Positions 1-32,624 of a stretch of 64,000 nucleotides of DNA are shown here, one piece after another. The stretch is taken from contig QPGO01000102.1 in the NCBI GenBank assembly GCA_008632985.1, forward strand, positions 124,001 through 188,000. Direction: 5' to 3'. Below the pieces are notes generated by a model that saw only the letters and a program-made list of their open reading frames with translations, was not told the origin of the DNA and made no database searches. The position numbers and the translations under genes are program-made. Every line of letters begins with the position of its first letter. Within the stretch, counting starts at the first letter, position 1. The stretch comes from Psammoneis japonica (Eukaryota).

Positions 1-71
1 GTGGTTGGAATGAAGCACAGCAGCTGGGTTGCACCGCCGAGCAGCTCCTTGGGGCCGGTTGCAAGATCGAG

Positions 72-1218: not shown

Positions 1219-1328
1219 TGTGCTCTGTAAATTAGCAGCACAGTGTGTTGGTGTTTTTCAGCGAAACTGTGGCATTGGTTGGAAAGGCGTGGCCCCAATT
1301 GTGGTTCGAAAAATGGGAACGAGGAAGA

Positions 1329-2583: not shown

Positions 2584-3131
2584 AACGACAATCGGATTTT
2601 GAATATAATTTATGTATGTTTTAGTGTATAGAGCATTTTAATAAAAATACTTAGACGGATTGACTTTTATAGGCTTCTAGAGTATGAACATTTAAATAGT
2701 TTTTTGAGGGGTATTCAAATCCTCATAGGATATGTATCATAAACTTCCTCAGTAGACTCAATACTGATTGTACGTCAGTAGATTTATACTGAGATTTTTT
2801 TGTAGGTAGAAAACCTACCAAGTAGCATCGTAGAAAGATATATTTAGGTAACATCCAAATAACGGCAATATTTTCGCCGAAAATCATCCGTTGTGTTACG
2901 AATCTTTTAACGCAATGAAAAACATAGATAGCACAATAACAATGATATTGCAACACTCACACGAGTCTTGTTAGTGTTGCAAAACATTTATATTTGAATA
3001 AATCTATACTTTTGGTGGTGAAAGTTCGATCGTAAGTTAGGGACCGCGCAAAAATCGCGCAAATGTCGTTTTTGTGCACGATTTGGTTCACGTGCGGCTG
3101 GAACACGTCTGTCACTGTCGTCTCAACAGTG

Positions 3132-3295
3132 CCCAAAGCAGAACTCTGTCGACAGGGACCGGCGGACTCCAGGGGAGTGGGGTCAAAACCCAATCGAGAG
3201 ATGTGTCTGCTTTCCGTTGCCTCAAGAGCACCCAAAGCAAAACTCTGTTGACAGGGACCGGCGGACTCCAGGGGAGTGGGGTCGAAACCTAATCG
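3132..3295. repeat. Direct repeat, two ~65-bp copies 99 bp apart
   Basis: cccaaagca(g/a)aactctgt(c/t)gacagggaccggcggactccaggggagtggggtc.aaacc.aatcg at 3132 and 3231. Confidence 0.85.
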
Positions 3296-3880
3296 CAAGA
3301 AGCATTTGCTTGTTGTCGGGCTGCGAGCTGCACATCCCAAACCCCCACACTGTCGAGACCGGCTGTAACTCGATCGCGACAAGTGCTTGTCGTTGGCAGG
3401 ACGACGCAGCGAGGCACGAGGCAGTTGCGACATGGTGTGTCTCAATTTGAAATGTGTTTCAAAACACAATGACGGAAGTGTTGTCACGTTGTTTTTGTCT
3501 CCGCGGAGGGAGGATCATCCCATGGCAATCTCAGTGCGAGTTCTCGCGTAGAAGTGCGTTGCGTGCCGTGCCAGCTCGTGCGTTTGAATTGCACGGACAT
3601 GCAAGTGCGGCGATGATGAGAAGCAGTCCGAGATTCAAAACAAATTTTACCACCTAAAGGCGTCTTGTTGTTTCAACGCATCTACATGTCTGTTTAAAAT
3701 GACTTCACACGTCGCTCCATGCGCAGGCAGAGGTGGCACGCCGCGTTTGAAAATTTCGCGCGCGCAGAGGGCGCGACGGCAATTTTACGCATTCTGCGCA
3801 CGTCACAGTTTGGTTTGGAAACGCGACATCTGGTCAAACCCGCTGCAAGCAAGGTTGATGTTGCCACAAGGTTGGGTGCG

Positions 3881-4750
3881 ATGAACCATCGTTGCAGAAG
3901 TGTTAGGGAGTTTTGTCTTCAAACGGCTCCGGACTCCGCGCTCCAGAGCAGGCGTGTCTCCGGAGACGGAAGCGGATCTTCGCACGGCGGCGAAGTTGGC
4001 TTCGCTTTGAGCAGCGAAGTGTTTTTGAACGAACGCCTTCTTGGCGTGAATCACACCTGCGACACATCTGTCGACATGGGCGGGGGAGTTGCCGGACCCA
4101 GCATCGGGCTCAAGTTACTTCGTCGCCGTTGCACCGTGGTGAGCATCGAGGCCAACCACGATCGTCACCAAGAGGCTGTGCGTTGGGCTCATCGTGCTGG
4201 CCTTCGCTCGAACGGCGGGCCAGAGTTGATCAACAAGTCATTCTTGGACAAGAGGCTGGCTCCTTTGTGGAAAAAGAAAGGACTCAAGGTGTTCTTCAAC
4301 AACTGCAACTCCCGCATGGTCGACGACAAGAACACACAGCAGAAGGCAGAGGCGATGCTTTCGAAGTTGTGACGTGCTGGGACCGTGGTGGTGGCACCAG
4401 ATCCGCTGTTCGCGTCGCACGCGGGAGAGTGGATGCACGAGTCCTTCACGGTGGATTGCCATGATGGCGACTTTTTGTGGCACAGCGGAGACGTGAAACA
4501 TCTCGTCTTCCACAAGTGCACCAAGAAAGAGGAGACTTCTCAGTCAACCAGCCAGCACATGCGACGTCCCACTCCGACACACTTGGAACGGAAGCATTTG
4601 CCCGTCGCGAAACAGCCAATTTTACTTAAGAACTCAACTGAACTGTTTTTTTACTGTCACTGCACTGGACGTCACACGCCAGTTGCTCTGCTCAATTTGC
4701 CATTGCTTCGCGGTGACGTAAAGTTGTTGTCGGAGATGGTGCACACTTGA
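3881..4750 (+). pseudogene. DOT1-like class I SAM-dependent methyltransferase with one in-frame TGA (4370-4372)
   Basis: Motif order matches DOT1: 'HGGEV' (YGE-like), 'DTSVDMGGGVA' (motif I), 'VVSIEAN' (post-I acidic), 'INKSFLD', 'VFFNN', then after the stop 'AGTVVVAPDPL'. ORFs 3719-4372 and 4385-4750 share a frame. Confidence 0.6.
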
Positions 4751-5711
4751 AGAGACAGAGGAAAGCTGAGTTGCAATCGACACTTGGTTTACCAAACATT
4801 TGCAAATTTACACTGCACCGGCCAAAAAAAGAAACAACTTGGTCTTCGTCGCTGTCCTGAAGCACCAAGTCGTCATCGACGTTCAGGTCAACTTCGCAGT
4901 TGAGCTCGACATCATCATCGGCCTCTTCTCCAGCTTCTTCCACCGGAGCTCCAATGAGACGACAGAGTTCCACAGGCAACGACCCCTCGCAGAAGCAACT
5001 GTGAAGCAAGTTCTTGTTTTGGGCGCACCAACCGATGTGAAACTGACCACCTTCCTTCTGAAGCTCGGCAAGCGCCGCCTCGTTGCCGATCACTTCGGAC
5101 CAAACAGCATCCTTCATCCAGAAGAAGTCGTCTTCAACGAAGACCTCGGTGTTGTTCTCAGGGTCATCGTTCAGCTGCTTTGCAATGCACTTCCCGAGGC
5201 CGCGCACCCCAGCATCGGTTGGGACTTCTTCGAGGAAGATGAAGAAGAGACGCACGGCGCAGTTCTTGGCGTTCGTCTGCAACTCGCCCTCGTGAACCCA
5301 CCTGCCAGCGTAAGGGTGGAATCCGACTTGAACCGCCCACGGAGTCCTGCTGCGAAGGTCATCAAACAGAACCTTCTCCGACCAAACATTGGTTGAAAGG
5401 GGATTCTTGGCTTGGAGACGAAAAACGACGCCTTTCTTGCGGCCGACAGTGACAGTGGCGCAGCGCAGGAGGGCGACCTTGTCGGAATGGCTGCCATCGT
5501 CAGAACCGGCGGATTTGGAAAGCTTGAACCCGTGCTTGGCAAGGCAGTCTTCCGGTTTAAGGTCGTTGTCGGTCAAGCCATTGGTCTTGCGGGGCGGACT
5601 TAGTTTCTTCAACAGAGCATCAGAAAACTTCGTCTTTGCCTTCTTCTGTTTGGTTTCAGCGACTTTGGCTTTCGCAGCCGGGGAGGTCGTTGTGTTTCTT
5701 TTGCGTGCCAT
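4692..5711 (-). CDS. Hypothetical protein (basic N-terminus, globular core, acidic tail)
   Basis: Long open frame (ORF 4692-5891) with a likely ATG at 'MARKRNTTT'. Protein-like composition; no family recognised. Confidence 0.5.
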   Translation of the reverse strand: MARKRNTTTSPAAKAKVAETKQKKAKTKFSDALLKKLSPPRKTNGLTDNDLKPEDCLAKHGFKLSKSAGSDDGSHSDKVALLRCATVTVGRKKGVVFRLQAKNPLSTNVWSEKVLFDDLRSRTPWAVQVGFHPYAGRWVHEGELQTNAKNCAVRLFFIFLEEVPTDAGVRGLGKCIAKQLNDDPENNTEVFVEDDFFWMKDAVWSEVIGNEAALAELQKEGGQFHIGWCAQNKNLLHSCFCEGSLPVELCRLIGAPVEEAGEEADDDVELNCEVDLNVDDDLVLQDSDEDQVVSFFGRCSVNLQMFGKPSVDCNSAFLCLFKCAPSPTTTLRHREAMAN

Positions 5712-6261
5712 CGAATCAGTCGGAGAGAAATTGTGGGAACAAAAAGTGCGATCGTTCAGAAGTGCCAAGAAAGACCCAGCAGAGCTGCGTGCATCACACC
5801 AAGGAGAACTGGCAACGTCAGCAACCAGATTCAAACACGTCGAACTGCAACAAGGTAACCTTCCAGGTGTCAGCACTTGCAAGTGGTGCATGGATTCAAT
5901 TTGAACAAAACAGACACAAGGATCAGAGCACGCAAAGTCGCACTAAGTTTGCTGAAAATGCGTAAAATCACGTGCAATTCCGTCCGTGCTTCGTGTGCAT
6001 TTCAGCCGTTGCTGCCGCGCGGCCATCGCGCACGAAATCTAGTCGCCAAACGGTCGATGCCATCGCTGTCACTACATGCTGTACCTGGCAGTTAGCTGAG
6101 GTGGGCCCATCACCCATTTGGAGGATTCGCGCGCACTTTGGAAACACGAATGATGTCAATCGCATTGTCATTGCCACACGACTGACTCAGCTGCCCCGCC
6201 ACTCGTCAAAGCATGATTCTACGGAATTTACGTAAAGCTGCGCCCACCACCAAGATTGCCG

Positions 6262-6365
6262 AAACAACTTGAACAAGATCCGAATCTTGCCCCATGGAAT
6301 GTTCAGAGCAGATGGTCGAAACAACTTGAACAAGATCCAAATCTTGTCCCATGGGATGTTCAACG
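6262..6365. repeat. 57-bp-period tandem duplication (NNLNKI.IL.HGMF x2)
   Basis: aaacaacttgaacaagatcc.aatcttg.cccatgg.atgttca occurs at about 6262 and 6319. Confidence 0.8.
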
Positions 6366-6517
6366 TCGACGAAACTAAGCAGGACATCGTGCGTCTGGTG
6401 CGAAGAAGGACGTGGGAGGAACGCACACGTCACTCTTCCGTCGAGGTGAAAGAGGCACACTTTCGTCTCACTTTTTTGTGACAGAACCTTTGCGCAAAGG
6501 GAAACGAAAAGCATCCA

Positions 6518-7200
6518 ACTGCGGTGATTGGGCCACACCGATCGCAGTTCTCAGTTCTCACAGTGACCTGGCAACGCAGGTTGTGAGATGACGCACAAGC
6601 TCAGCTGCGGTGACTGGGTGACACCAGTCGCAGCTCTCACAGAGACCTGGTCGCACAGGTTGTGAGAACACGACACAACGCTGCGGTGATCGGACAGCAC
6701 TGACGCAGTTCGTCAAGCAACTAATTCACTTGGCTGCGGTGACTGGACGACACCAGTCGCAGCTCTCACAGCGACCTGATTGCACAGGTTGTGAGCAAAC
6801 AACACAGCGCTGCACCTCGTAATGCAGGTTGTGAGATGACGCACAAGCTCAGCTGCGGTGACTGGACGACACCAGTCGCAGCTCTCACAGAGACCTGATC
6901 GCACAGGTTGTGAGAACACGACACAACACTGCGGTGATCGGGTGGCACCGACGCAGTTCGTCAAGCAACTGGTTGGCTCGGCTGCGGTGACTGGACAGCA
7001 CCAGTCGCAGCACTCACAGCGACCTGATTGCACAGGTTGTGAGAAGACGACACAGCGCTGTGGTGAACGGGCAGCACCGACGCGGTTCGTTGATCAACTG
7101 GACAGAACCACTGCGGTGACTGGACGACACCAGTCGCAGTGCTGCAGGTGGCGAGAAAACACACATCGCTGTGGTGATTGGATGGCACCGATCGCAGCTT
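6518..7200. repeat. Tandem array (129-bp period) built from ~10 copies of a 28-29-bp imperfect palindrome plus a second hairpin motif
   Basis: ctg(c/t)ggtga...cacc..tcgcag-type units at about 6519, 6605, 6681, 6734, 6853, 6929, 6982, 7058, 7111 and 7169. Spacing 6605-6734, 6853-6982 and 6982-7111 is 129 bp. Confidence 0.85.
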
Positions 7201-7284
7201 CACGGTGATCGCACCGAAAAAACAACTGTTTTTGCTGAGTGACTTCTTGAAATTTGTCGAGTCAAAGCATCAGCTTAAATTAAA

Positions 7285-10200
7285 ATGGACGAGGCCAACT
7301 CCCGTGTTTGCAATGCAATCAATGGAAAGTTTGAGATGCTTTGTCTGCACAGAGACGGAGAATTTAGACCACACGCATGTTTGGTCTGTGGCGTTCTGCT
7401 GAAACCTAGAGAAGTTTGCTGCTTGCCACTCGAAACATTGGAATCAGCAAGAAACTTGCTCACCCCTTCAGACTGGAACAGCGCATCTGATCGTCTCAAG
7501 TCCTGCTGCACTGTAGAGCATGAAGATGCTGATTGGATCAAAGACCTGCTGCTTTCTCCCCGCGCCCAATGCGCAGTGCAGGAAGACAGACGACGTGTCG
7601 ACGGATTCACTTGCTGCAGCGAATGCTGAAGAAGCCTGGGAAGAGCCATCATGCCAATGTGCGCGACAGCGAACAACTGCTGTTTCGGCACCCCGCCGCA
7701 CGAACTGTTGTCCCCAACCGAGGTGGAATTGGCAATGCTCACACCAGTGAAAACATGCGGGTGCTGCTTCAGTTGCCTTGGCGGCAAACAGAAGAAGCTT
7801 CAGGGAAGTCTGACATGCTACAAAGTCAAGGTGCAAAGCATCATAAGAACTGTTGTGCACTTCGACGTGCTGAATTTACATCAGAATGTGATTTGCACTG
7901 ATGACTGGAAAGATGACTCCGGAGCAAAGACAACTTGCGCGTTCAAAGAACAGAATTAGGACGCACTGCATGCCAAGGGCGATGGAATGGCTGTTGCACC
8001 ACAACCAAGAGTGGGTGTGCCAACAGACAAATCTAGACGAAGTTGGGCGTGATCTGCGGAATCCTGCACTTGTCGACAGCACCGGCGAAGAAGAAGGAGA
8101 AAATGCAAATGTTGAGACCTCAGAGTCATTTCACATTTGCTTTCCTGATGGAACCATGTCTCCTGCGACCGGTGGTCAGTGCAACCTGGACTGCTTCAAA
8201 GATCTTGTGCACGAAGCTGCTGCCAACGGATTTGATTTAGAGGTGCAAGCACAGTTGTCTGAAGAATCTGCGAGTGATTTCAAAGGCAACAACTTCATCA
8301 ATGCGTGTCTGCTGCAGTTTCCTTTTGGCAGAGGAGGAATCAATGAGACGAGAATGAAGAAAGACGGAAGTCTTGCAGACAGCACCAACCTTGCACACTG
8401 TGCCAACCACTTGGCACGGATTTCCCAGCCTCACTTCCACGAGCAGCTCTTCGTGTTAACATGCCACAACTTGACAATGAAGCAAAGGATGCTGCAGAGC
8501 ACAGGGTGGAAAGTCAGGGACAAGAATCAGGCTGCACAGTTTGCAAACGAACTGACAGTGGACGATGTGGACAGAGCTGTTTGTGATCGCAACTTGGGTG
8601 AGAGAAGAGATTGTGGACTCGGGCACCACTTTTTGCGCGCACTCGACGTTGCATCTGCATCTCTGCCACACAGCAACGAAGCGGCAAAGAAAATGAGGAG
8701 AAACGCCGAAACTCATCAGCATCATTTTGGTCAGGGTGGCATTTTCTTGACCGTCAGTCCGGACGATGCAAATTCGTTTCTTGTGCAACTGCACTCGGGT
8801 GTCATCCTGGACCCAAACGAAGACGTGACACAACTGACGGACGAAATTCTTGCCAGCAGGGCTGAGCAACGTAATGAGCTGCGTCTAAAGTTTCCCAGTC
8901 TAACAGCCTTTGCATTCGAGTGCTTGTTTGACATTGCAACGGAAGAGGCAGTGGGTTGGGATCTGAGTGCCAACCAACCAAGAGAAAACTTTAACTTCTG
9001 CGTTGGCAGGCCAGCCGCATTTTTAGCCGCAGTTGAGGAGCAGGGACGTCTGACAGTGCACGGACACATGCAGATCTGGTTCGCATCGATCAACAATGCA
9101 AGAGAGAAACTGCATTCACCAATGAGACAGATCCGACGCGAAGGTGCTGATTGCCTTGCCAACACAGTTCAGAAGATCTGCAGCACGGAATTAATCTGTG
9201 GCGAGGACTTCAGCACCAACGCGTTGCGTGAAGCATTCGATCATGACTGCACAGCACCAAAAATGTGTCGCACCTCTCCAAAAGCAGCAGACGACCAACA
9301 GCTAAGAAACCTGAGGCATGAAGACGGCCAGCAGTCGAAGAACGGAATGTTTGCTTGTTGTCGTCACTGCACCAAGTGCTGGACAAACGTCGAGTTTGTA
9401 GAAAGCTTTTTGCAGTCACGGCACCGTGTGCCTGGCCTGACTCGCCATCCAGATGACCATGCAAAGCAACTAAAAGCAATGTGTGTACAACACCAGCGAA
9501 GTGGTCCGCAAGGGACAATGGAGGCATGCATGCCGGACGCAGCTTACAACCATCACATGCACGTTACGAAGTCGTGTTTTCCCAAATGCGCAGAGTTACG
9601 TAAAATGCGCAAAAAAACCCCACACGAGGAACTGGACGCGCTGTCAAGGAAAAGGAAACGAGAGGAGCTCAAACTGGGTGACTGCCGTCACAGGCAACCA
9701 GCTGCTTCGTGTCCAAATAATTTGGCAAGGAACGCAGATGACACTCAGATAAAGTGGTTCAGCTGGGATGGGACTTTTACGCATCGGTGCGTGAAGGAAG
9801 TTGTTCCGAAGAGGAGAAAGTGCGATGCTTTTCAAAACGTGCCGTGCCCTGCAACAAGCAGATCAAAACTGACATGCAACACAAACATTGCTTTGTTGAT
9901 GCCTGGACCGTCTGCTCAACACACGATCAAGCACATCCTAAAAGATGCCCAGAAAGATGACACTGCATCGTACGACAAAGTGCTTCGAACTGCGAACAGG
10001 ACAGCGACGGAATTACGGAAACACGCATCTGATGCATCGGAAGCAATCAGACGTCTCACATGGGGTGCTCACTCGCATGACAAGACGAACGTCATTGGAC
10101 CACCACTTGCGTCTTACATGACAAGGAACAGAAGCCGTTTCATCGAATCTCATTTGACCGCATGGTGCCCCTTGAAAGACATTGTCAGCACACTAGAAAG

Positions 10201-13018
10201 AGACGAAGTGTCTGCGACTGTAGCCCATTTTGGCGACACACCGTTCTTCCAATGCCAGGCCTTGCACCACCTGTGTCGTCCAACAGCACTGGAGAATCTT
10301 GGTCCGTTTGCGTTTTTCAGTGAACACGAAGTTCTTCGCAACACAAGGAAAAACGAACACGGCATGATGATGTTCGACAACAGAGCGCACAGGCACCCGT
10401 CTTGTGATTCAACGAAGAACAAGTTTCTTCAAGGTGTCAGACAGCGACAGCAACCGCGATTGTTAAAAGTGCTTCAGTGTGATTTTCCTGATGCAGCCAA
10501 GTTTGGCAGTTGCCTTGTAAATCCGCAGCAACCAACAACGCCAGACAAAGAATTGCACTGCAAGTTGGCATTGGCCTTGTTTGCGCCTTGCAGAACAATG
10601 ATGGAACTCAAACCAATGACCCGTGCATGCCTGCGTGAATTCCAACTCTCTGCAGCAGCCGGTGTTGTTGCAGAGGAAAACTTGAACTTCTTGCAGAACC
10701 TGCAGGATGCCAAGTCCAACTGCCTTCGTCTCAAAAGCACATCTGACGATCTGCAAAGAAAGACAGAGCAATTTAGACCTGCTGACGTTGCGTTTGACTG
10801 TTGCGAAAGTGACGAGGAAGAAGGTCTTTCAGGCGCCGTTCAGGGTCAACTGCTGGATGCACTCTTGGAAGAAATGGCAGAGCAGCCAGAAGACGATGAC
10901 ATTGGGTTGAGCGACCAAGCAGTTGTTCCTGCGCATTTGAGCGGCAAACGTGCAAGACAGAAAGGTTCGCACATGGGTGGTTGCAAATGCTTGGCAGACA
11001 TGCACACTGACCCACCAAACGAGGAAAGCCAGGTCAATGAACGACAACTTTTTGAGAATCTAGAGGGCGGCGATGACACCGACGAGGAAGACCAGAATGA
11101 AGGAGTGCAACAACACATCCACAGCAGACCACTGTCAAGAGACGACATTGTTCGAGTGATGCTGACTAGAACGCAAAGAACAAGAAGGTCGTTTGAGGAC
11201 ATGACAGGTTTGGAAGAACACGTCGATGTACGTCAAGCAAACGGATCTGCAGCAAGTGTCATAGACTGGGCTAGGAAAGCAAGACTGGATGGGCAACAGC
11301 AGCGTGCCTTTGAAATTCTGGCAGGAACCTTTGTGCTCACTTGCTGTCAAGACGCTCTTCAAGACGAGACGTCATGCAATGGACTCAATGGGAGAAACAG
11401 CAGACATGAATTCACAACAAACCTTCGCCAATTGAAGAAACTCGTGGAAGTGCAAAGACGTAGAACGTTGCAACTTGTGTGTTTTTTACATGGTGCAGGT
11501 GGAAGTGGCAAATCAACCACAATGGACCTCGTCGTGGAATGCGGAAGAGAGCATTGCTCGCTTGTTGAGCAGCCGTTCACAACAAGCACAATCAGAGTGA
11601 CTGCACTGACCGGAGTGGCTGCCACTGTTCTCAAAGGGGACACAATCCACCGAGTTGCACACCTCATGAGAAGAAAGCAAACAACTGAAGAGCAAATTGA
11701 AGCATGGTCCGACACGAGACTTTTGGTGGTAGACGAGATTTCTTTTGCAAGCAAGAGAGAACTAGAAAAACTCCATGAGAATTTGACAGTGTTGAAGAGC
11801 GAATTAAGCAAGCCGTGCGGTGGCATGAACATTGTTTTCGCAGGTGACCTCAGGCAACTAGAACCAGTCGGAAAAGGAGTGAAACCACTGTGCAAAGATG
11901 TGTGTCCCGAGTTTCACGAGTGGATCAACTGCCACATGGAACTTCATGGTGTGCACAGGTTTAAAGACGATCCATCATGGGGAAAACTGCTCAAGAGATT
12001 CCGCACTGGCAAGATTGCAGTTGACGATGTGGAGCACATCAACGAACGAGCAGTTCAGAATGAAGATGATCTGCCCAGTGACCTCCGCCATGCCACGTAC
12101 GCAAACAAGGACAGAGATGCAATTGACACTGGCCCATTTGAAAAAAGAGTAAAAACACTGCATGGAAGAGATGGAGACGTCCTTGACTCAATGTTGATTT
12201 TCAGTGACGACTTGCAGGTGCAGAATGGCACGAGACTCTGCCAACCATTTCCGGTTTGCAACAGCTTCTGGAACAACTGTGGTGAAGGAGACGTTGTCAT
12301 GCAATCAGGAAGAATGGATCCAGTCTTACGAATTTACAGAGGATGCAGAGTCATGACACCTTTCAACGAAAATGCAGCAAACGGTCAAGCAAACAGAACG
12401 CAAGCCACTGTTGACAAGGTCGTTCTCAAACCAGGACAGGAACCAAGACCAGTGACTTTAGACAACAACATTGGCGTTCCTGCTGTGCTTGCCAGTCAGG
12501 TAGACCACGTTGCATTGGAACACTGCAACAAAAGCATCGACCCCGCGAAGTTTTTAGTTGAGCCAAAAACAAATGCTTTCAGGGCTTGCATCGCCAAGCC
12601 CAGCCTGGCTTTAGAAGAAGGCGACAAACAAAGGCACACTTTCCAACTGAAGGCAACCCAGCTGCCGTTTGTCATCAACAATGCCACTGCAGGGCACAAA
12701 CTGCAAGGGAGTGGAGCCCCGCAGTTGTTTGTACACTCTTGGAGCTGCACTCAGAATTGGGTGCATGTTGTGCTCTCCAGAGTAAAGACCAGAGAAGGGC
12801 TGTTCATGCGAAAGCCACTGAGCAAGGACCTGCGAAAATGCAAGGTCCCAGAAGGCTACGAAGCCTTGACAAGACTCATGAAGGAGAGAAGCGCCGCGCA
12901 TTTTTCTCAGCAACAGTGCGCAGAAACATCAATGCAGTGCGCAAACATTGGATTAGGATGCTCAACCACTGCACAACCATTTGGCGACCCCAACCGTAAA
13001 AATGCGGAAATTTTGTAA
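7285..13018 (+). pseudogene. Helitron-type Rep/helicase (DUF6570-like N-terminus, HUH Rep, PIF1 helicase), TA-scarred
   Basis: N-terminal 'CLVCG' and 'ANNCCFGTPPHELLSPTEVELAML' in interrupted frames 7285-7959. The 1705-aa ORF 7901-13018 has Rep motif 1 'FLTVSPDD', motif 2 'VEEQGRLTVHGHMQIW' and motif 3 'HTIKHILK' (YxxKY expected). Helicase motifs: 'HGAGGSGKS', 'VVDEIS', 'FAGDLRQLEPV', 'HRFKDD', 'AGHKLQG', 'HVVLSRVK'. Confidence 0.9.
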
Positions 13019-13083
13019 AATGAAATGTTTCGATTAGATCAGCACATTGCGCAGAAATCTGCACATGCGTCACACAACGTTGA

Positions 13084-13554
13084 ATGGATTTTAACCAACA
13101 AACCAAGAAACGCGAACGCAACCGTCACAGAAAACGCAGCAACAGAGAAAACATGGATTTGCAACAACAAACAAAGAAGGCAGACGAGCCAAAGAAAACT
13201 GGTGAGGACAACAAAAAGGTGCAGACACATGCGGAACTTCTTCAGTCATTGATGAATGAGGAAGACGAAGAGGAGATCACCTTGGAAGAAGCAAGAGCGG
13301 CGTTTGACCTTGCTTCAGGAAATTTTGATGTCACTTCTGCACTTGTGCAAGACAACACGACAGTGGACAGTCATCATGTGGAAACAACGGTCACGCCCAA
13401 GGATGATTCAACCATGGAGGAGCTAAAGGCAGCACATGCAGCGGCGATTCCACAGCGGTCGGGGAGATTTTTCACCGAGGAGGAGATGGCGGAGCAGGAG
13501 AAGGAGCAAGCAAAGTCCCTTCAGAAGAAGCATGGCCAGAAAGAATGGAATTGA
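13084..13554 (+). CDS. Small acidic hypothetical protein
   Basis: 156-aa ATG-initiated ORF immediately downstream of RepHel, in a block where stop codons are depleted, so weak evidence. Confidence 0.3.
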   Translation: MDFNQQTKKRERNRHRKRSNRENMDLQQQTKKADEPKKTGEDNKKVQTHAELLQSLMNEEDEEEITLEEARAAFDLASGNFDVTSALVQDNTTVDSHHVETTVTPKDDSTMEELKAAHAAAIPQRSGRFFTEEEMAEQEKEQAKSLQKKHGQKEWN

Positions 13555-14496
13555 GCAAATTGCAAACAACTGTTTGGCAAAGACAACCGCATCAATGCGT
13601 GAAATGCATGCACATGGACTTTCACTTAAGCCGCCGCGGATTGAGCATGGCCACAAATGAGGACTGGCCATTTGGCAAAGAAACTGCAACAATGCGTAAA
13701 TTTCGTACATTTCCACATTCACTTAATCCAACGCAGCTTGCCTCAGACAACATCAACATGCACAACTGGACAACATCAACACACACAGACAGCCTCATGA
13801 AACCTCACAGAAGACAGAACGGTCAGAAGCAAAACAACCAGCACCACGCACTAACGCATGTCAGTCATGTCGCGTGGGTCGCGCAAAAGCGCGCACCGAA
13901 ACGACCGTCATGTGTCACAACCAATTCGAACGCCCGGCGCAAAATGCAGCAAAATGATTGGTGCAGGCAATCGTCATGGCTTTTTTTTCTGACAGCAGCG
14001 AGGGCGGCAATCCAAAATCTTTCGGCTTCAGACTTCGATCTAGAGAGTTCCACCTAAAAGAGGAGGAACCAATTGTTGGTGCTTGCCTTTGACAGAAAAA
14101 ACGCGCGTCAGTCGCCTGTTTCCTCTCCAGCGTCTTTTGGTGCAAAAAATGCTTGGGCTTTGTGTGCGATTTCAGAAAAAAAGATGAGGTTTGCTCTGAA
14201 AATGCGACGGAGGCGCATGGTTGCATGGAATGCTGCAGAAGCGTGAGACAACAATGGCGCACTGAAGCCCTGCCTGCATCGGTGTTTGGATTGGTCTGTC
14301 CCCTTGACAACACCTCTGCAGTGCCTTGCTGCAGTTCATAGAGTGGGGCCCCACCTGTGTGCTCAGTCTACGAACAGACACAGCACAGGGTGCCGCGCGC
14401 ACTGTGTTGCCCAAACTCATCATTGTCCACAAGAACCACGGCTTTGGAAAAGAATTGCATGCCGCGCATCAACCAAAGTGACTCCAGAGAGGGAAT

Positions 14497-15395
14497 TCAA
14501 AGTGCTTCACTTTTTTGTTTTTGATTCTCAGTGTGAGATGGCTTGATTGGAGAAGGCTTTTCCTTGAGGAAGTGGCAAATCAAGTCAGGCTCTTTTCGCG
14601 TGTGCGCCAACACCTTTGCCCACAAAGCATCAGGGACCCCAGACTTTTGCAACAAGGAACTTTCTTCCTTTTTGCAACAATGACAATCCTCAATTTCAGC
14701 ACATCCTCTCTCTCCAACAGTGCGACCCAGAGAATTGACACTTGTTGTTGTGTTTTTTCCTTTGGTGCGCGAGCCATTGTTGCTTTCAATCTGGCACCAC
14801 CAAACTGATTCTCCAGGATGTCGAAACATTTCATCATGTGATTCTTTTGCAACATCTTTCCAGAAGCTCTGGTGCCTTTGATGCCAAATCAATTGCCCCA
14901 GAGTTGCAATGTCTTGGCTCTCTTGTTCTGGGCAAGGACTTTCCCTGTGGCTCTGGCGCCCTCATCTCCCAAAAGATTCTTGATGAGACAAACACACACA
15001 ACTGTGTCATTCTGGGTGAGTCCTTCAAAAAGCTTGTGTGCACCATCATCTTCAATGTCAGTGCCACTCAGAGCCAAACTTCTGATCACATGGTTTGTTT
15101 TCAACATTTCTCCAATGTGCTTTGCGCCCTCATCGCCAATCTGACGATTGCGATCCTCAAGGAAGAGCACATTGACTGAAGTGTTGTTCCTCAATGCCTC
15201 ACACAGAAACCTGATGCCAGTTGGGCCAATGTTGGTGTCAATTGACACCAACCATCTTGGACATGGCAGATGTGGGATCACTTGGGGCAACTGGCACATC
15301 TCTTCATCTCTGACGTTTTTTCCAACGAGTTCAATCCACTCAACATTTGGAACTCTCATGGCCAAGATGTCTTGTAAATCCCTTGAAGATGACAT
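14497..15395 (-). pseudogene. Degenerate copy of the RNI-like LRR gene
   Basis: Aligns to 21266-22153 and 31404-32294 ('DLQDILAMRVPNVE...EPDLICHFLKEKP'). Premature TGA at 14889 derives from CGA; frameshifts; Tyr read as Cys/His. Confidence 0.9.
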
Positions 15396-16829
15396 TTTGT
15401 CAGAGGTGTCAATGACAAGAAAATGAGCAAGCACCTTAAGAGGACAGCAGACAACAATGATGGTGAGTGTGTCATGTGACTCAGTGACTTTCCATGGTCT
15501 GCATCAAGAGTTTGGAGTTTTCGAGGGAAATGGCATGGGCAGTGGGCTGAGTGGTTTGAGCACAGTGCACCCACTCAATCTGCAATCCACGATGACACAA
15601 CGACAATTGGACACTTTGCTGGGTGGCCTTGTCTCATTGTCTTGGCACAAACAGAGTGACCACAAAGTGCTCTGTTCTCTAGAATGATGAGCATCACTTT
15701 GCCACTCTTCAAGAGAAGAACATCTGTGGCATTCTTGGGCTTTGGTTGGATGTTCATTTTGCTGGAAAGCCAACAGGACACCTGGCAGCACCCCCATGCA
15801 AGCACTGCAAAGTGCCCCACCAGCATCATCTTCATCATGTCTTGCACCTCTCTGACCAACTTGTTGACAGCACTTGCCACCCACAAATGGTCTGGTGCAG
15901 CAAGCAGAGAGCGCGCACCATCTCACACCACATTTGACCACCATCAACAACAACAATGCTTGCTCCTGTCTTTGCAGCTTGCAATCTGGCTCTTGATGAG
16001 CAGACAAAGCTGGGGTCATTTTGTTTGCAGCCCACCCAGATGCTTGTGCAATGCAGAGTGACAATGAATCAAGGCACAGGGGCTCACATTTTGAGCTTTG
16101 CCATGGCCGCCCTCTGACAATTGTGAGGCCGAGCAAGGGCATGCAGAGAAAAAGAAAGCCAGAAGTGCTTTTGGCTTTTTTGGGAAGTTGAGCTGAAAGA
16201 AAGTGGTTCTTTGGATGACTTGGAGTTGATGAGGGTTGATGGTCATTGGACAAGGTCAGCCAGCCTGCACCTCACAAGCTGAGCCCACTGTCTCTTGAGG
16301 CATGAGAAAAGAAGGTGTGGTCTGTCTCATGTGGCCCAAGAAGAGACACACATGTTGTCAACTTTCTAGCTCCACTCAACCTCAGTGTGGCAGCAAGCCA
16401 GCTGGAGATTGGTGCACAATGTGCAACCAGCCAAGATCAAGATTGTTGATCTGTCCATGAGTGCAGGAGTGGACACCTCAAACAAAGACTGCACCATGCC
16501 CAGATGGGGGGATGTGAAGCTCAGAACAGAGAATGCAACAGCTGACATCCTCAGCCCAAAGGATGTGAAAAGCAAGCAGTGTGACATGTGACAACAGAGT
16601 GGAAGGGGCAAGTTCTGGCTGTTGGGCAAGAAGACTGGCAAGCAAGTCATGGCATTCAGAGTTGACAATGTTGGGCTGCACATGTTTGCACCAAGCCAGC
16701 AACTCTTTCACTGCACAAAAGAGCTTTGAGCAAGTGAGCTGCATGTGAGCATGCTGTCAAAGAAGGAGAAGAAGAAGAAGAAGAACAGTCCCAAGCAACT
16801 TGCACAAATGGAAATGTTGTGAAAGTGAC

Positions 16830-18070
16830 ACCCACTCAATCTGTGATCCACGATGGTGTGCTGACAACAACAACAACCACGCAAGTGAGAACAGTGAGCC
16901 ACAAAACAACACATCAGCTGGAAGCAACTCTTTGCCACAATGGCCAACTGCAGCCACCAAAAATGACATTTCCCAGTTGGTCAAAGAGGCTGGAGCCTTG
17001 TTGGGTGCAGCAATCACCCAGGTGCCTTGCTTGCCCCCTCTTCAAGCACAAAAACAGCCCCCCCCCCCCCCCTCCCAAGGCACATGTGCAGCTCTTTTGC
17101 TGCAACAGCCCTGGCTCTTCTTTCAAATTTGTTTTTTCTGTGGCTTTCACATTTCTGCTCTCTCAGCTCAGAGGAGCATGTCTTGTCAAGAGCCAGCAGC
17201 GGTGTCTCCTGGGTTGTGTTGACAACATTGATGAGGTTGCTCTTTCTGCCCATGTTGAGAGCACAATGGGTCCCATGCTGAGATCTCTTGGGGTCAATTG
17301 CATCATGGACCATTTGGCTCTTGTGGGAAATGGGTTGATGAGCCAAACATGTGATGGCTTGTTCAAGTCAGTTCAGCACATGTGATGGCCTTGGCTGGCT
17401 CTGATCAAAAGTCTTGCAAAAGGCTTGTCTGGGAGGAGTGCAAGCAATGCACAGCCATGGTGAGCAGGACCTTTCAAGAACCTGGCTTGCCTGAAAAAAA
17501 TTGTGCCATGGGCTCAACAAGCAAGTGTCTTGCAGCCAAGCAGTTGCAGACTCAAAAAGCAGTGTGGAAATGCTGGCAAGCCATCACATTGCAGAGAATC
17601 AGCTTGGTCTGCATGTGCTGTGTGGCATGTCTGGCTGCACCAAGCACTTGCCAAGAGTCCTCCAGCCAAGTTTGTCTTAAGGTCTGACTTGTTGGACAGA
17701 GATGGGGCTGTTGCAAAAGTTGCATCTCTGCTTTGTCAAGCCACCCAAGATGAGTTTTTTGAAGTGTGGCATCAACAAGTGGTTGCTGACACCTCAGCAG
17801 ACAGGTGGCACACGTGCTTCCCCTCCAGCACCAGCCAAAAGTCTTCTGAGCTTGCCAACCATGCATGTGTGCAGTCCCATTTGTGTGTGCCAGTGTCTGG
17901 AGTGTGAGCATCCCATGAGGTCTGGCCTTCTTCACAGCCCACAGCACCAGACAAAAAACTCCAGTTTGGTTGGTCCAGGTTGATTTTCAAGCCTCGGAGG
18001 AACACAGCAGCAAGGTCCATGGGTGTGGCATGGAAACCAAAAAGTCAGCTCAAGGTGCTGGTGCATGTGC
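16830..18070 (+). pseudogene. Degenerate copy of the 5' UTR and 5' coding region of the HEATR5-like gene
   Basis: 16962 aatgacatttcccagttggtcaaagaggctggagccttgttgggtgcagcaatcacc aligns to the start of 31126(-). Homology continues to about 'FVLKSALEDKA...DKFPEVRQ'. Confidence 0.85.
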
Positions 18071-18721
18071 AGAAGGCAGAGCTTGTGACCATTTGCAAAA
18101 CAAGTGCCAAGAGCAGCACCTGGCAAAAGATCAAGTGGCACCAACAGACATGGCTGAAGAGCATTTTTTGCACTCTGCTGTCAGGTTGCAGAACTGGGCT
18201 TCATGGCACCTGTGCCAATGTCATTCACCTCAACTTGGCATCATCACCAACAGGTGACACCAACCCCAGCTGATTCTTTTGCCTTTCTGCACCACACCAT
18301 CTGTTGCAACGGAAGTGTGTGCGGGTCAACCTGCGGCACTGTTGTTGGCACAATGGCGCAACACCAGTGCTCTGGACTGGGTCCAGTTTTTTCAACACCA
18401 CTGGAGCTTGCTGCAGCTGTGGCCTTTGCATTGCTGCTGGCACTCACAGCAGCCAGAGCCCTGGTGCTGTTGGCACTCACAGAGGTTTTTGCACAAAACT
18501 GGCACCGGGAGTGGTTGGAGCCTTCTTGATGCTGCTGGCACTTGTTGTGGAGGTTGGAGAGCCTTCACATTGCTGTCATGGTTGGGGCCTTTGTGCTGTT
18601 GACCTTTGCTGCAGTTGAAGCCTTCTTTGTGTTGCTGGAACTTGCAACAGTTGGAGCTTTTGAGCCACTGGTGCTCATGGCTGTGGCATTTGTGGCAGTC
18701 AAAGCCTTGGAGCTTCTGGCA

Positions 18722-19440
18722 TTTGCAGAGGTTAGAAACTTTTTGCACAGATGGCACTCACTGGGGGTGGATTTCTGCTGTTGGTTGTCCCGCCACATCT
18801 TCCTCTGCTTTGGAGAAATGATCATGACAAACCACAAAGGAGCAACAAACCAGAAGCAAACCACCAAGCTTTCTTGAGCAAAATGACAAGAATGACCACA
18901 AGTTGCCCAGCCCACCAGTGTTTTGTCAACTTCTTTGAAAAAAATCCTTGTCCAGTGCCCACACAATGAAGAGCAATGCTGCACCATTGTTCAATTGTTT
19001 TTCTCTCCTTGCATGTTGGTGAGTGCAGTGCTGGCACATCACAGTTGTAAAGTGGCGCCAACAGACATGGCTGAAAAGAGCATTTTTTGCACTCTGCTGT
19101 CGGGTTGCAGAACTGGGCTTCATGGCACCTGCAGAGGTTAGAAACTTTTTGCACAGATGGCATTCATCAGGGGTGGATTTCTGCCATTGGTTGTCCCACC
19201 ACATCTTCCTCTGCTTTGGAGAAATGATCATGACAAACCACAAAGGAGCAACAAACCAGAAGCAAACCACCAAGCTTTCTTAAGCAAAATGACAAGAATG
19301 ACCACAAGTTGCCCAGCCCACCAGTGTTTTGTTGACTTCTTTGAAAAAAGATCCTTGTCTAGTGCCCACACAATGAAGAGCAATGCTGTGCCATTGTTCA
19401 ATCATTTTTCTCTCCTTGCATGTTGAGTGCAGTGCTGGTG
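18722..19440. repeat. Direct repeat, ~310-bp copies at a 406-bp period; 19048-19130 also repeats 18130-18212
   Basis: gcagaggttagaaactttttgcacagatggca... at 18725 and 19131, near-identical through ...tgcagtgctgg. Confidence 0.9.
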
Positions 19441-19454
19441 CATCGCAGCTGTCA

Positions 19455-19610
19455 GTTGTTGTTGTTGTTGTTGTTGTTGGTGTTGGTGTTGGTGGTGTTG
19501 GTGGTGGTGGTGTCAGCCATTGTTGTTGCTGTTGTTGCTGTTGTTGTTGTTGCCGCTGTTGTTGTTGTTGTTGTTGTGTTGGTCGTGGTGTTGTTGCTGT
19601 TGTTGTTTCA
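19455..19610. repeat. Compound (GTT)n/(GGT)n microsatellite
   Basis: Direct reading of the sequence. Confidence 0.95.
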
Positions 19611-21265
19611 TGTGGTTGCAACATGATGTCTCAAACAGCAGCAGCAGTGCTGCAGTTGGCATTGATGCAGTTTGCAAGGATGCTGGTGGCACAGACTCTA
19701 GCAGCAGCCACACTGCTGGTGGTGTCCCCCAAGATCACAGCAACCACCTCCAACAACAGCACCTCTGACAGCAACAGCAACAGCAGCACTTCCAGCTGGG
19801 TGAATGATGATGATGACATGTTGCAAATGATGACTCAGCCAGAGTGCAGCAAGCCAGGTGATGCTCCAGAATGGCTCATTGTGGGCTCCTCTGACAAAGC
19901 CAGTGGAAATGCCAATGGCGCCAATGCGGCAGCTCATGAAGGTGCTGGCAGCTCACCCTTTGACTCACCCAATGAAGCTGCTCACAATGGCACTCCTTTC
20001 TCCCATCCTGGCTCATTGTCTTTCATTTTGATGCCACCACTCATTGCCAGCCACCTTGTTGTTTTTCTTTGGAGTTCCCCGCCAAGCAGCAAAACAAGGA
20101 ACTTCTTAAAAAATGTGGCTCACTGTTGATGATCTTGTTTGTCAGGAGATTGTTGACTTGCACCCTGCCAAGGATGAGATTTTGAATTGTTTTGAAAACC
20201 AGCAGTCTTCGTTTGAGAAACTCAAGCTGAAGTGCCCCAAACAATTTTTTTCCTGTCGGGCATTGTTTTTTGAGAAGCTGCAAACAGCTGCACCAGGTGG
20301 CTGTCCAGTTCTCAGACATGTGAGCTGTGAGCTGCACCCACATTGCCAAGAAGGTTGTGCACCAGAGACAAAATGCTCTTTCACCACTCAGAGCAAACCT
20401 GACATGGGTCACCAAAGACAAGCAACCCTTCATTGGGAACTCTGCAGGAAAACAGAGCCAGCTCATGTGCCCCTTGAATGTCATCAAACAGTGTCTTTGG
20501 GGGGGGGGGGGGGGGCACTCAAAAATGCACAGTGACAGGAAGTTGTCAAGAAGCATCTCAAACAATGAGACTGGGTCATTGCTCCACCAAGGAAAGTGGG
20601 AAGTCAAACAAAGTGCTTTGCCTGCAAAAAGACAAGCATTTTGTGCAACAATTGCCCAAGTTTCCAAGCACTCAAGAGGCATTCCTCAAGACAGAAGACA
20701 CAAGGCAAAGATCTGTCCCATGTGCTCAACAGTGAAATGCCCCCCAACAACACAAGGGATGTTTGTGATGATCACATGGAGTCAGAAATGTGCCCCACCA
20801 AAATGAGTGGTGTCATCATTCACAGCAGTCTCCACATGGTGGTGGACAACCATGGCAAAAGTTGCCTTGAGCATCCCTCTCTGACAAAGACAGCAAATGT
20901 GGACCATGACTTCAAAAAACACCAACGGCAACCGTGCTTTCATCAACAAAAAAATTGTCCACTTCTCACATCATCTGTGAGATGGATGCTGGGAACTGTG
21001 TGACCACAAGTGGCTTCACAGACATGCACATCACAGCTGCCGTTGGTGTTCGGGACGCTTTCGGTAGCTCCATGCTATACAGCATCATTTATCGGTGCGG
21101 TAACCAGCACGATTCCTCAACAGTGCCATGCTGTACCATAGTTCATAGAGTAGGGCCCTACTAGTAGACTTACGAATAGATGCAGTAGGTTAGTATGACG
21201 TTACCTAAACTCATAACTAGGAGTTTCACGCTGTGCATTGACCACAGCGGTTCTAGAAAGGGAAT

Positions 21266-29800: not shown

Positions 29801-31126
29801 TTCTGGTCCAACCATTTGCAACGTAGCACTAATAACTTGTTGCAACGACATACTCTGGGAGGGTCCGATAGTGTCTCCCACTTTGCATTGCAACGCAATA
29901 AGTTTGACTAATGCCAGAGAAACACCAATACGTACAGCGCGCCCTCCCATACTAAACGAACCTCCACCACGAGAAGCTGCCAACTCTCCACCCACTTTGC
30001 AAAAATGATGAACGAGAAACTTGATGGCCGCTGGCAACGTACAGCACGTCATGGCAATACCCGCAGACTTGGTATTGCTGTGATCGCTTCGTTCCGACGA
30101 GCGTTGCTTCTCCCCATACTCAATACTCGTACACAGGCACCGTCCCAGTGCTTCCGACCATGCTGCAGAGACACCCGCCCTTTCGTCATCGACATTCTTC
30201 AGACTCATCACCAAGACATCCTCGAGACTGGCGGTTGGACCACCGGAAGAACCAGCATCGTTGGGTTTGGAAGACTTTTGGCTGATATTGGAAGTAATTA
30301 ACATGGGCGCCACTAGACTGGCAAGATTGGCAGCTGCCTGACGTACTTCAGGAAATTTGTCTGAGGCGGCTTGACGAAGCATACGTACAGTTTCGACAAT
30401 TGCCTTATCTTCCAAGGCAGACTTCAAGACAAACTTTGCTGAAGGATTCTTGGTGAGCGCTTGACGACGACACGCCACAAGGACGGCACACGCGGTTCGA
30501 ACTGATTCTATACGATACGACGGCTCGCCATTCCCACTACTCTTGAGTCCACGATGACTTAGCTGTAAGACATTCAGAGCCCACGGCGTTAGTTTCACAG
30601 ACAAGTCGGATTGAAAGAGCCCGCCTATCACGGCCATGGCTGATATACGAGTTCCTCCCGCCGCCTTTTGTGACTTTGGATTGGTACCAGCCAAGGCCAT
30701 CATGCGCTGAACAAACTTGAACAAATCATTACGTGTTTTTCCCGTCAATCCATCGCCCAGTACCAAACAGTCCACGACGCAATCGACCCAAAGAGATCTT
30801 AGCGGTGTGGATAGCAACATGGGACCCGTCGTTTTCGACTTGGTGCTCGACACAGAGAGTAATTTCATTAATACTGCCAATAAGCTAGGAGAAGCCACGA
30901 GAGGTTCTTGACGAGACGCGCTCCTGAGCTGAGAGCGTAGAAACGAAAGCTGCAAAAACAAATCCGAGAGAGGAACCGGGGCTGTCGTAGCAAACGAACT
31001 GTGCATGCCTTTGGGCGGTGTAATTGTTTCTGCGCTGGAAGAGGGGGCGAGGCACCGGGTAATTGCTGCACCCAATAAGGCCCCAGCCTCTTCGACCGAC
31101 TGGGGAACGTCATTGTCGGTAGTCAT
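23847..31126 (-). CDS. HEATR5: HEAT-repeat protein of the HEATR5/Laa1/SWEETIE family (one clear intron at about 27967-27897; several 1-bp frame breaks)
   Basis: Consecutive minus-strand ORFs total about 2300 aa. Motifs: 'LKECLSHSDHGVRHEAA', 'RLVDAAIQAF', 'RRAAAEGLALLA', 'ARAGSLLTLACIQR', 'PDVSILEQFASQI'. Confidence 0.75.
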
Positions 31127-31403
31127 AGTGGGCTATGGTGAAGTGTTGCTTTTAGCTGTTTATTGCGGCTCACTTTGCGGTTGTTGTTGTCAGTGTGTCA
31201 TTGTGGATCACAGATTGAGTGGGTGCGTTATGCTCAAGACAATCTCAAATCACTTCCACCGTCTGTGCCCCCCGAAAACTCCCCCGCCACGAAGCATCCT
31301 CCTGCATCAACATCGTTAGTTTATTGTGATACCTTTGATGAAAACCTCGCTGACCTCTTCAGGTGCTCACTCATTTTCTTGTCTCTTTGACACCTCTGAC
31401 AAA

Positions 31404-32294
31404 ATGGTGTCTTCAAGCGATTTACAAGACATCTTGGCCATGAGAGTTCCTAATGTTGAGTCGGTTGAACTCGTTGGCAGAAACATCGGAGATGAAGAGA
31501 TGCGCCAGTTATGCCGAGTGATCCCGTCTCTACCACGACTAAGGCAGTTGTCGTTATCTCTGAACAACTTTGGCCCGACTGGCGTCAAGTGTCTGTGTGA
31601 GGCGTTGAGGAACAATACTTCAGTCGAGACACTCGACCTATACTGCAATCGTCAGATTGGCGATGAGGGCGCAAAACACATTGGAGAAATGTTGAAAACA
31701 AATCATACGATCAAAAGATTCTGTCTAATTCGCGCTAATGTTAGAGATTATGGTGCACAAGCGCTTTTTAAGGGACTTGCCCAGAATGACACAGTTGTGC
31801 GCGTTTGTCTCATCGGGAATCGCATAGGAGATAAAGGCGCCAGAGCCATCGGGAAAGGCTTTACCCAGAATATGAGAATTAAGACACTGCAACTCTACGG
31901 CAATCGAATCGGCGACGAAGGCGCCAGAGCTTTTGGAAAGATGCTGCAAAAGAATCGCACGATAAAACGTTTCGACGTCCGGCGAAATCAGTATGGTGAT
32001 GCTGGAGAGAGAGCTTTAGCTCATGCACTAAAGGAAAACACAGCAATACCTTGTTTTCTTTTGGGTAGCATTGTTGGAAAGAAAGCATGTGCTGAAATCG
32101 AGGATTATCGTCATTGCAAAAAGAAAGGAAGCTCCTTGTTGCGAAAGTCTTTGGTCCCTGATGCCTTGTGGGCAAATGTGTTGGGGCGCATGCGAAAAGA
32201 GCCTGATTTGATTTACCACTTCCTCAAGGAAAAGCCTTCTCTATTCAAGACGACCACCACGGAAAATCGCAAGCGAAAACGTGAGGCGCTTTGA
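31404..32294 (+). CDS. RNI-like LRR protein, paralogue of 21266-22153
   Basis: Intact ORF from ATG 31404, with the same repeats and a near-identical C-terminus (ENRKRKREAL). Confidence 0.9.
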   Translation: MVSSSDLQDILAMRVPNVESVELVGRNIGDEEMRQLCRVIPSLPRLRQLSLSLNNFGPTGVKCLCEALRNNTSVETLDLYCNRQIGDEGAKHIGEMLKTNHTIKRFCLIRANVRDYGAQALFKGLAQNDTVVRVCLIGNRIGDKGARAIGKGFTQNMRIKTLQLYGNRIGDEGARAFGKMLQKNRTIKRFDVRRNQYGDAGERALAHALKENTAIPCFLLGSIVGKKACAEIEDYRHCKKKGSSLLRKSLVPDALWANVLGRMRKEPDLIYHFLKEKPSLFKTTTTENRKRKREAL

Positions 32295-32624
32295 ATTCCC
32301 TCTCTAGAACCGCTGTGGTCGATGCACAGCATGAAACTCCTTTCCAAAGCATGGTTCTTGTAGATAGTTATGAGTTTAGGTAATGTAATACTGCATCTAT
32401 TCGTAAGACTACTAGTAGGGCCCTACTCTATGAATTACAGCATTGTAGGTATCTTTGAGCAGTTCAAATGCCGACAGGGCTACTAGATAGAGCATCCTGT
32501 GATCCTGCATAATGATGGCATTTACGATGAAAACTTGGCGGGCTTGCTTGCTTGAGACGTCCGTCCGTCTGTCTGGCAGTCCGTCCGTCTGTCTGTGCTC
32601 CGCCATCTGTTACCGTCCCTGCTT

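Follow-up and report, generated by a model that had tools for sequence, protein, structure and literature searches.

In parts of a 64,000-nucleotide window of the Psammoneis japonica assembly (contig QPGO01000102.1, positions 124,001 to 188,000, forward strand), the TA dinucleotide is almost absent, and the few TAs that remain nearly all sit between a pyrimidine (Y) and a purine (R), in the context YTAR. The question raised by this locus is which process erases TA over kilobases and leaves so selective a residue. The analysis covered this one window, meaning the whole 64-kb stretch, together with one coded DNA run, X1. Taken together, the evidence makes it probable that this diatom-like nuclear genome has undergone locus-restricted hypermutation of TpA to CpA or TpG by a process that reads the flanking bases, and that the YTAR excess is the kinetic residue of that flank preference.

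Residual TAs in two erased blocks

Observed/expected ratios (o/e) in 1-kb windows separate three composition states across the window. The first, ordinary DNA, spans 21-35 kb and 40.4-64 kb, with a TA o/e of ~0.4-0.9 and a CG o/e of ~0.8-1.4. Region A (1..14329, unstranded) is TA-poor with CG kept (TA o/e 0.11-0.26 and CG o/e 0.6-1.2, an island at ~2590-3030 being left out). The most degraded state is found in two unstranded blocks, B1 (14330..21050; TA o/e 0.01-0.08, CG o/e 0.05-0.19) and B2 (35395..40420; TA o/e 0.00-0.04, CG o/e 0.05-0.14), in both of which CA/TG is doubled (o/e 1.7-2.2). Over 1-21 kb and 35.4-40.4 kb, a TA o/e of 0.00-0.26 goes with a CA/TG o/e of 1.3-2.2, a clustered depletion coupled to enrichment. 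The borders of these domains are sharp, to ~10-200 bp, and the right border of B1 lies at ~21050.

The ~11.7 kb of B1 and B2 together hold only 23 TAs, and 18 of these are YTAR: 10 of 14 in B1 (counted over 14330-21000) and 8 of 9 in B2 (35400-40400). In ordinary, ORF-dense (open reading frame) neighbouring DNA, the YTAR share is 16% (229 of 1428 TAs), against which the binomial P of the excess is 7e-11. Two of the YTAR sites are double-counted through local duplicates (18733 = 19139 and 36024 = 36558), and the independent count of 16/21 gives P = 2e-9. The five TAs outside this context are 14339 ATAG, 14369 CTAC, 15375 GTAA, 19048 GTAA and 35538 TTAC. An earlier note on this DNA, made from the letters alone, had claimed that surviving TAs are almost all YTAR and exceptions rare. 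The full count bears out the first part, with all 14 quoted heptamers in place; both quoted exceptions are also present, although the exceptions number five and not two.

Counting all 16 NTAN tetramers gave non-uniform depletion; the uniform depletion that the earlier note had named as contrary to its claim was not seen. Within the blocks, TA/(TA+CA+TG) is 0.028 for YTAR flanks, 0.0034 for mixed flanks and 0/631 for RTAY flanks. The TAs preceded by a purine or followed by a pyrimidine, proposed in that note as the targets, were indeed hit hardest in B1, in B2, in four sub-regions of region A and in a young duplicate inside B1.

The loss of CG that accompanies the loss of TA in B1 and B2 is a point absent from the earlier note. 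Towards the right border of B2, CG reappears at ~40130, while TA is missing up to ~40420, ~290 bp further on. Since region A also loses TA and not CG, CG loss is nested inside TA loss, and the two erasures are separable.

A scarred copy beside intact paralogues

The ancestral state of part of B1 is recorded in a duplicated gene segment that carries a leucine-rich repeat (LRR) gene of the LRR_6 family. Two copies are intact and served as references: P1 (21139..22214, minus strand; LRR_6 E 1e-30, TA o/e ~0.56-0.59) and an inverted copy, P2, which together with part of the neighbouring gene (P2b) occupies 30257..32437 (plus strand; inverted repeats I1-I10 and alignments; LRR_6 E 4e-21). The third copy of the gene, S (14330..15470, minus strand), is scarred. 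Its alignment partners are 21125-22230 and the reverse complement of 31320-32450, and a weak LRR_6 match is left. A second scarred piece, S2 (16809..17859, plus strand), is a copy of part of ORF 29438-31126. Its counterpart, the reverse complement of 30257-31247, was identified by a search in the purine/pyrimidine (RY) alphabet (84% match over 1075 columns) and by alignment. The inverted LRR_6 duplication (21139-22214 / 31186-32437) has 87% identity, with ~9 kb of ordinary genes in between, and P1 and P2 keep normal TA and CG, although the third copy, 6.8 kb away, is fully scarred.

For S, only sites at which P1 and P2 agree were counted. Just 3 of the 30 ancestral TAs are kept, 13 having become CA and 12 TG, and 26 of the 28 changes at these sites are T>C (14) or A>G (12), near-exclusively transitions. 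The 30 ancestral CGs include 4 that are kept, 15 that are now TG and 6 that are now CA. Outside TA and CG, 114 of 824 sites changed, in a balanced manner: T>C 22 and A>G 18 compared with C>T 17 and G>A 16, which confines the excess of AT-to-GC changes to TpA. In S2, none of the 36 TAs of the paralogue is kept (17 TG, 9 CA), nor is any of its 57 CGs (27 CA, 17 TG). Pooled over S and S2, 3/66 TAs are kept and 51 read CA or TG; for CG, 4/87 are kept and 65 read TG or CA. These comparisons establish both the direction of the change and its dinucleotide specificity.

Repeats within the blocks demonstrate that mutation took place after local duplication. A young duplicate pair in B1 (18697..19464, plus strand; copies 18697-19060 and 19103-19464, 328 aligned columns) differs by 14 events: 6 CA/TG swaps, 2 cases of TA versus TG or CA, 2 of CG versus CA, 2 indels and 2 others. 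Ten of the 14 fall at TA- or CG-type sites, and the presence of only 2 other changes indicates that erasure is fast relative to background divergence. The sole TAs that differ between the copies are CTTAAG and TCTAGT, both YTAR, while a third, GTTAGA, is kept in both; this is the pattern predicted by slow conversion of YTAR. In B2, ~530-bp tandem repeats (35926..37070, plus strand) are accompanied by a third, diverged copy at ~38560-39140. Between the first two repeats, CA/TG swaps make up 17 of 49 adjacent double differences, compared with 2 of 32 in the unscarred control P1-P2. Ancestral TA and CG sites were thus resolved independently in each repeat, and B2 was mutated in place.

These alignments also bear on the idea that B1 and B2 lacked TA and CG from the start, being foreign or compositionally distinct DNA, or else that they are an artefact of sequencing or assembling heavily modified DNA, with the YTAR pattern incidental. 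Room for it is left by the 17.9-21.05 kb part of B1, which is without an unscarred paralogue, and by the possibility that X1 comes from the assembly's own sample, its library type being unrecorded. Against it, B1 aligns to two paralogues of normal composition in the window, with TA turned into CA or TG at homologous sites, and the internal repeats of both B1 and B2 differ by CA/TG swaps, so that their ancestors had TA or CG. Strand-mixed miscalling should, by inference, also have yielded TA from CG and CG from TA. Run X1 contains 91% of the sampled words from 13800-21800; eight of its contigs, at word depths of ~56-68, together span 14046-21288, including both borders of B1, and each differs from the window by 0-2 letters. 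Agreement of these ~60x contigs over 7.2 kb and both borders stands against foreign origin or artefact, and exact 31-mers at ~60x depth argue against a consensus or base-calling artefact in particular. Overall, this is the least probable of the explanations considered and hardly to be entertained. Differences between X1 contigs and the assembly (at 19282 and elsewhere) were considered as polymorphism and set aside, being explained by contigs from internal duplicates or diverged copies.

The word depth of X1, ~60 in the surroundings, rises to ~6900 at 13800-14066 and to ~320-350 at 16203-16736, which identifies both intervals as multi-copy elements. The second lies in an insertion (15607..16809, unstranded) inside the scarred copy, recognised by repeat and RY-alphabet matches and by word depth. 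This insertion is flanked by two copies of sequence homologous to 31186-31247: 15549-15606 and 16829-16874 both match 31180-31244. Other RY-alphabet matches formed a long tail of short ones, for which E-values are meaningless in a two-letter alphabet; only 14399-15607 and 16809-17859 against 31-32 kb were used. The interval 22380-23500, considered as a second reference for S2, was not homologous and was left out of the counts.

A 12-bp palindrome, GTAGGGCCCTAC (21150-21161), lies at an end common to the three copies of the LRR segment. In the scarred copy (14343-14354) the sequence is GTGGGGCCCCAC, again perfectly palindromic, one TA having become TG and the mirror TA having become CA. The shared palindromic end may be the terminus of a mobile element, or could be chance. 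Elsewhere in B1, long homopolymers are present as a C run and a G run (17062-17075 and ~20497-20513), and at 19440-19610 CAG/CAA-rich sequence comes after a long, imperfect microsatellite of GTT/GGT.

A graded flank effect in region A

Region A, in which TA depletion is partial, allows the flank effect to be resolved by context. Survival was calculated relative to the host and normalised to CA+TG with the same flanks; overall, TA survival is 0.245 relative to the host-like expectation. By context, it is 0.00 for ATAT, 0.01 for ATAC/GTAT, 0.04 for ATAG/CTAT, 0.11 for ATAA/TTAT, 0.12 for GTAC, 0.17 for CTAC/GTAG, 0.39 for CTAG, 0.51 for GTAA/TTAC, 0.66 for CTAA/TTAG and 1.27 for TTAA. A multiplicative model with independent flanks fits these values (chi2 1.6), and uniform depletion is rejected (chi2 77.4). 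In the multiplicative fit, the survival factor is 1.23 when the 3' base of TAN is A, 0.55 for G, 0.36 for C and 0.07 for T. TAA is the best and TAT the worst survivor in all four sub-regions and in both blocks, the order of G and C being swapped in A3, the sub-region of a Helitron ORF described below. The +2 base also counts, with TAGA, TAAA and TAAG the most persistent. In the blocks, by internal comparison, the contrast between purine and pyrimidine is roughly tenfold. For CG, flank context has only a mild effect, with survival of 0.056-0.12 across CGN.

The flanks therefore matter, as the earlier note had proposed, but its binary YTAR rule gives way to a gradient (loss with 3' T >> C > G > A) with a further +2 effect. 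Nearest-neighbour duplex stability was considered as the cause of this order and rejected: on the stacking values assumed here, TT/AA flanks are weak steps, yet they are the most resistant.

Region A contains what may be called a ghost of a Helitron RepHel gene, a 1705-aa ORF (7901..13018, plus strand; Pfam Helitron_like_N and PIF1). Its Tyr content is 0.4%, against 3.3% at the median of 84 homologues and 2.3% in the lowest of them. Conserved Tyr columns were defined as those with Tyr in at least 70% of 39 homologues. Of the 24 such columns, 10 hold His (CAY) in the ORF, 7 Cys (TGY), 4 Tyr (TAC in every case) and 3 Phe. Positions Tyr674 and Tyr678 are Tyr in 39/39 homologues and are both CAC here; judged by their spacing, they would probably be the two catalytic tyrosines of the Rep domain. 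The residues used as controls are retained (Phe 32/35, Trp 15/15, His 18/18, Cys 15/17). The ORF is still open because conversion of TA to CA or TG creates no stop codon and removes TAA and TAG. Region A is the product of the same process as the blocks, at an earlier stage. Within it, 2590-3030 is a 440-bp TA-rich island with sharp edges and few CGs (49 TAs in 2601-3000), either a later insertion or a protected stretch.

The Helitron ORF also speaks to the possibility that selection, not mutation, removes TA, acting on TA-rich signals, RNA cleavage sites or stop codons, with YTAR tolerated for its function. TA is mildly under-represented in ordinary genes as well (o/e ~0.4-0.7), as selection would allow. 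The affected sequences, however, are functionally dead: the Helitron has lost 17 of its 24 conserved Tyr residues, and the LRR copy is degraded. Replacement of TA and CG almost solely by transition products, and borders that are sharp and independent of gene structure, tell further against selection. YTAR, moreover, has TAA or TAG on both strands, the opposite of what avoidance of stop codons would keep. On this evidence selection is very improbable.

Several observations weigh against a hypermutation that spares YTAR by reading the flanks. For 54 TA sites defined by the paralogues, both flanks are known: every YTAR (12/12), YTAY (14/14) and RTAY (14/14) site is lost, and 2 of 14 RTAR sites are kept, one of them at a block edge. 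Sites of known ancestry thus give no sign of YTAR protection (0/12 kept, others 2/42), in a comparison of low power where nearly all sites are converted. The YTAR TAs at 15437 and 17678 are TGAA in the intact paralogues, which makes creation bias possible; judged from the alignment, they would have arisen after duplication and then persisted, or else the paralogues changed. The region A survival values take neighbouring coding DNA as the ancestral baseline, and a value above 1 for TAA marks that baseline as imperfect. The contrast of TAT/ATA with other contexts is, even so, too large for a baseline effect. The possible shared origin of X1 and the assembly, raised above, and the failure of the susceptible flank to predict which base of the TA changed (9 vs 13) belong here as well. 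The earlier statement that YTAR "resists" does not hold: all 12 paralogue-defined YTAR sites were lost in the scarred copies, and 15437 and 17678 are not simple survivors.

The erased YTAR sites and the two TGAA counterparts are what would be expected if the eraser had no flank preference and new TAs were made preferentially in YTAR after full erasure, for example by deamination of methylated non-CG cytosine. The changes involved differ, however (G>T at 15437, G/A at 17678 and 19281, C/T at 19360), and no single pathway fits them. In a null model in which TAs in the blocks are re-made by any single substitution, with transition weights from 1 to 1000, the expected YTAR share is just 23-24%; against it, 18/23 has P = 3e-8 to 6e-8 and 16/21 P of ~5e-7. 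Deamination of CAG to TAG alone would give ATAG and GTAG too, and a 5' purine is found in 1 of 12 NTAG sites. In region A, with its partial depletion, most TAs must be old, and there the same flank order recurs in four sub-regions and a multiplicative loss fits. Preferential creation is therefore unlikely, though less so than selection or artefact. Slower conversion of YTAR is concluded in either case, whether the TAs are old survivors or regenerated ones that escaped re-erasure.

Proposed process and comparison with known systems

In the process favoured here, flank-reading hypermutation of TpA, the domains hit hold a dead Helitron and what surrounds it, a duplicated gene segment in its decayed copy, and the tandem-repeat block. 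The eraser would read the bases beside TA, converting alternating purine-pyrimidine contexts (ATAT, ATAC/GTAT, GTAC) fastest and pyrimidine-TA-purine contexts (TTAA, TTAG/CTAA, CTAG, especially with a further purine) ~10x more slowly. Near-complete erasure would leave few TAs, either old or regenerated by ordinary mutation, and hence almost all YTAR, with no immunity implied. In the two most degraded blocks, CpG has likewise become TpG or CpA. The simplest source of that loss would be cytosine methylation and deamination in a nested sub-domain, although a shared enzyme is possible.

The earlier note had argued for an enzyme rather than drift. A directed process does fit better, given the TA-to-CA/TG transitions and the sharply bounded domains, and we infer an enzyme behind it. 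One candidate would be a DNA-acting adenine deaminase of the ADAT2/TadA type, the kind put forward for Bigelowiella natans; another would be an enzyme modifying the T in TpA. Because the strands are complements, deamination of A and modification of T leave the same sequence. No strand bias was seen at paralogue-defined TA sites (TG 23 vs CA 18), nor were strand-coordinated runs (22 runs vs 21.2 expected). At the Tyr codons of the Helitron ORF, His 10 vs Cys 7 likewise gives no coding-strand bias, which speaks against editing of sense transcripts followed by reverse transcription. As the flank does not predict the changed base, a one-strand model with TAN as the target is not established, and recognition may be of the duplex tetranucleotide. 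The process would seem to be aimed at silenced or repeated DNA.

A broader reading can be offered only tentatively. A genome-defence editor of diatoms could mark silent, repeated or mobile DNA and erase its TpA, with CpG erasure coupled to it; it would recognise a duplex tetranucleotide, prefer RTAY and disfavour YTAR, and change one or the other base of the TpA at random. Taken with the Bigelowiella case, it might represent an old defence, widespread in the SAR supergroup (stramenopiles, alveolates, rhizarians). If this were true, the measured flank profile would be a fingerprint for identifying the enzyme responsible. For annotation, the locus is a warning: as conversion of TA to CA or TG removes TAA and TAG stops and creates none, hypermutated elements keep long ORFs, such as the 1705-aa Helitron, and may pass as intact genes though their probable catalytic tyrosines are gone.

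The genomic setting of the locus is ORF-dense nuclear eukaryote DNA. Pfam families in the window include SF3a60/Prp9, a HEATR5/Laa1 repeat region and a JmjC/cupin protein in addition to the Helitron RepHel. For the SF3a60 protein, diatoms (Fistulifera, Pseudo-nitzschia, Nitzschia, Cyclotella) supply the closest named relatives, and the best matches overall reach only 53% identity. Among 14 of the 42 stop-to-stop ORFs of B1, mostly the longest, the degraded LRR_6 was the sole Pfam family, and among 12 of the 33 in B2, again mostly the longest, there was none. Three Pfam matches below curated cut-offs in B1 and B2 ORFs were taken as noise.

A fungal parallel is repeat-induced point mutation (RIP) of ascomycetes, likewise a domain-limited, defence-like hypermutation by transitions. 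It prefers a dinucleotide, strikes duplicated or mobile DNA and leaves dead but recognisable copies. RIP changes C to T mainly at CpA, so that TpA goes up and CpA/TpG go down. Here the direction is the opposite, with TpA lost and CpA/TpG doubled. RIP, moreover, mutates every copy of a duplication, yet P1 and P2 are untouched. CpG decay of methylated repeats resembles the CG-to-TG/CA changes at 65/87 paralogue-defined sites (21/30 in S, 44/57 in S2) in a bounded domain. Deamination of 5-methylcytosine, however, leaves the loss of TA unexplained, and region A loses TA without CG loss.

ADAR and TadA/ADAT2-type deaminases share with the present case a change of A to G with U or T directly 5' of the edited A, here with both strands affected. 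ADAR prefers a 3' G. In the window, by contrast, TAG is slow and TAT fastest (survival TAT 0.07 < TAC 0.36 < TAG 0.55 < TAA 1.23), and, unlike the products of RNA editing by ADAR, the changes are fixed in the DNA, in a segment whose duplication took place at the DNA level.

The closest known system is that of Bigelowiella natans, the only relevant case returned when a limited full-text collection was searched for TpA depletion or RIP-like mutation in diatoms; within that collection, no diatom report of this signature came up. Its preprint describes de novo TpA-to-TpG/CpA hypermutation of integrated viral DNA in mutation-accumulation lines (bioRxiv 10.64898/2026.01.13.699255). According to its main text, 231 of 302 de novo mutations fell in two integrated viral regions, every one at TpA and essentially all of them A>G or T>C. 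Genome-wide, windows poor in TpA and rich in CpA+TpG are also reported to cluster, with transposable-element-type domains enriched among the depleted genes, and the authors' hypothesis is an ADAT2/TadA-like adenine deaminase acting on DNA (bioRxiv 10.64898/2026.01.13.699255). As far as that account goes, the two cases are alike in A:T-to-G:C transitions confined to TpA, giving TpG or CpA by strand, in their limitation to regions, and in loss of TpA with gain of CpA+TpG.

They differ, on the same account, in lineage and in targets. B. natans is a rhizarian, while the closest named relatives here are diatoms. The DNA hit there is viral, and here it is a Helitron, a duplicated host gene segment and tandem repeats; no viral genes were seen in the hit domains, which hold the Helitron, the host-type gene copy of B1 and, in B2, no recognisable family. 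Depletion is near saturation here (TA o/e 0.00-0.08), compared with 0.45 reported for the giant-virus (NCLDV) region there. CpG is co-erased in two blocks here, and a flank rule applies (RTAY fast, YTAR slow); in the main text of the preprint, the words "context", "flanking", "CpG" and "diatom" have 0 occurrences and no flank rule is described (bioRxiv 10.64898/2026.01.13.699255). De novo mutation was measured in B. natans, whereas the process is known here from its footprint in the sequence.

Locus-targeted TpA hypermutation was thus already known, described so far, in the literature covered, once, in a rhizarian alga. What appears to be new, from the pattern in this window, is that TpA erasure in a diatom-like genome comes near saturation, that it hits a Helitron as well as duplicated host DNA, that CpG erasure joins it in places, and that it carries a quantitative flank profile. 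The flank rule supplies a concrete specificity profile for testing candidate deaminases or thymine-modifying enzymes, and TpA hypermutation gains phylogenetic breadth from its saturated footprint in a diatom-like genome.

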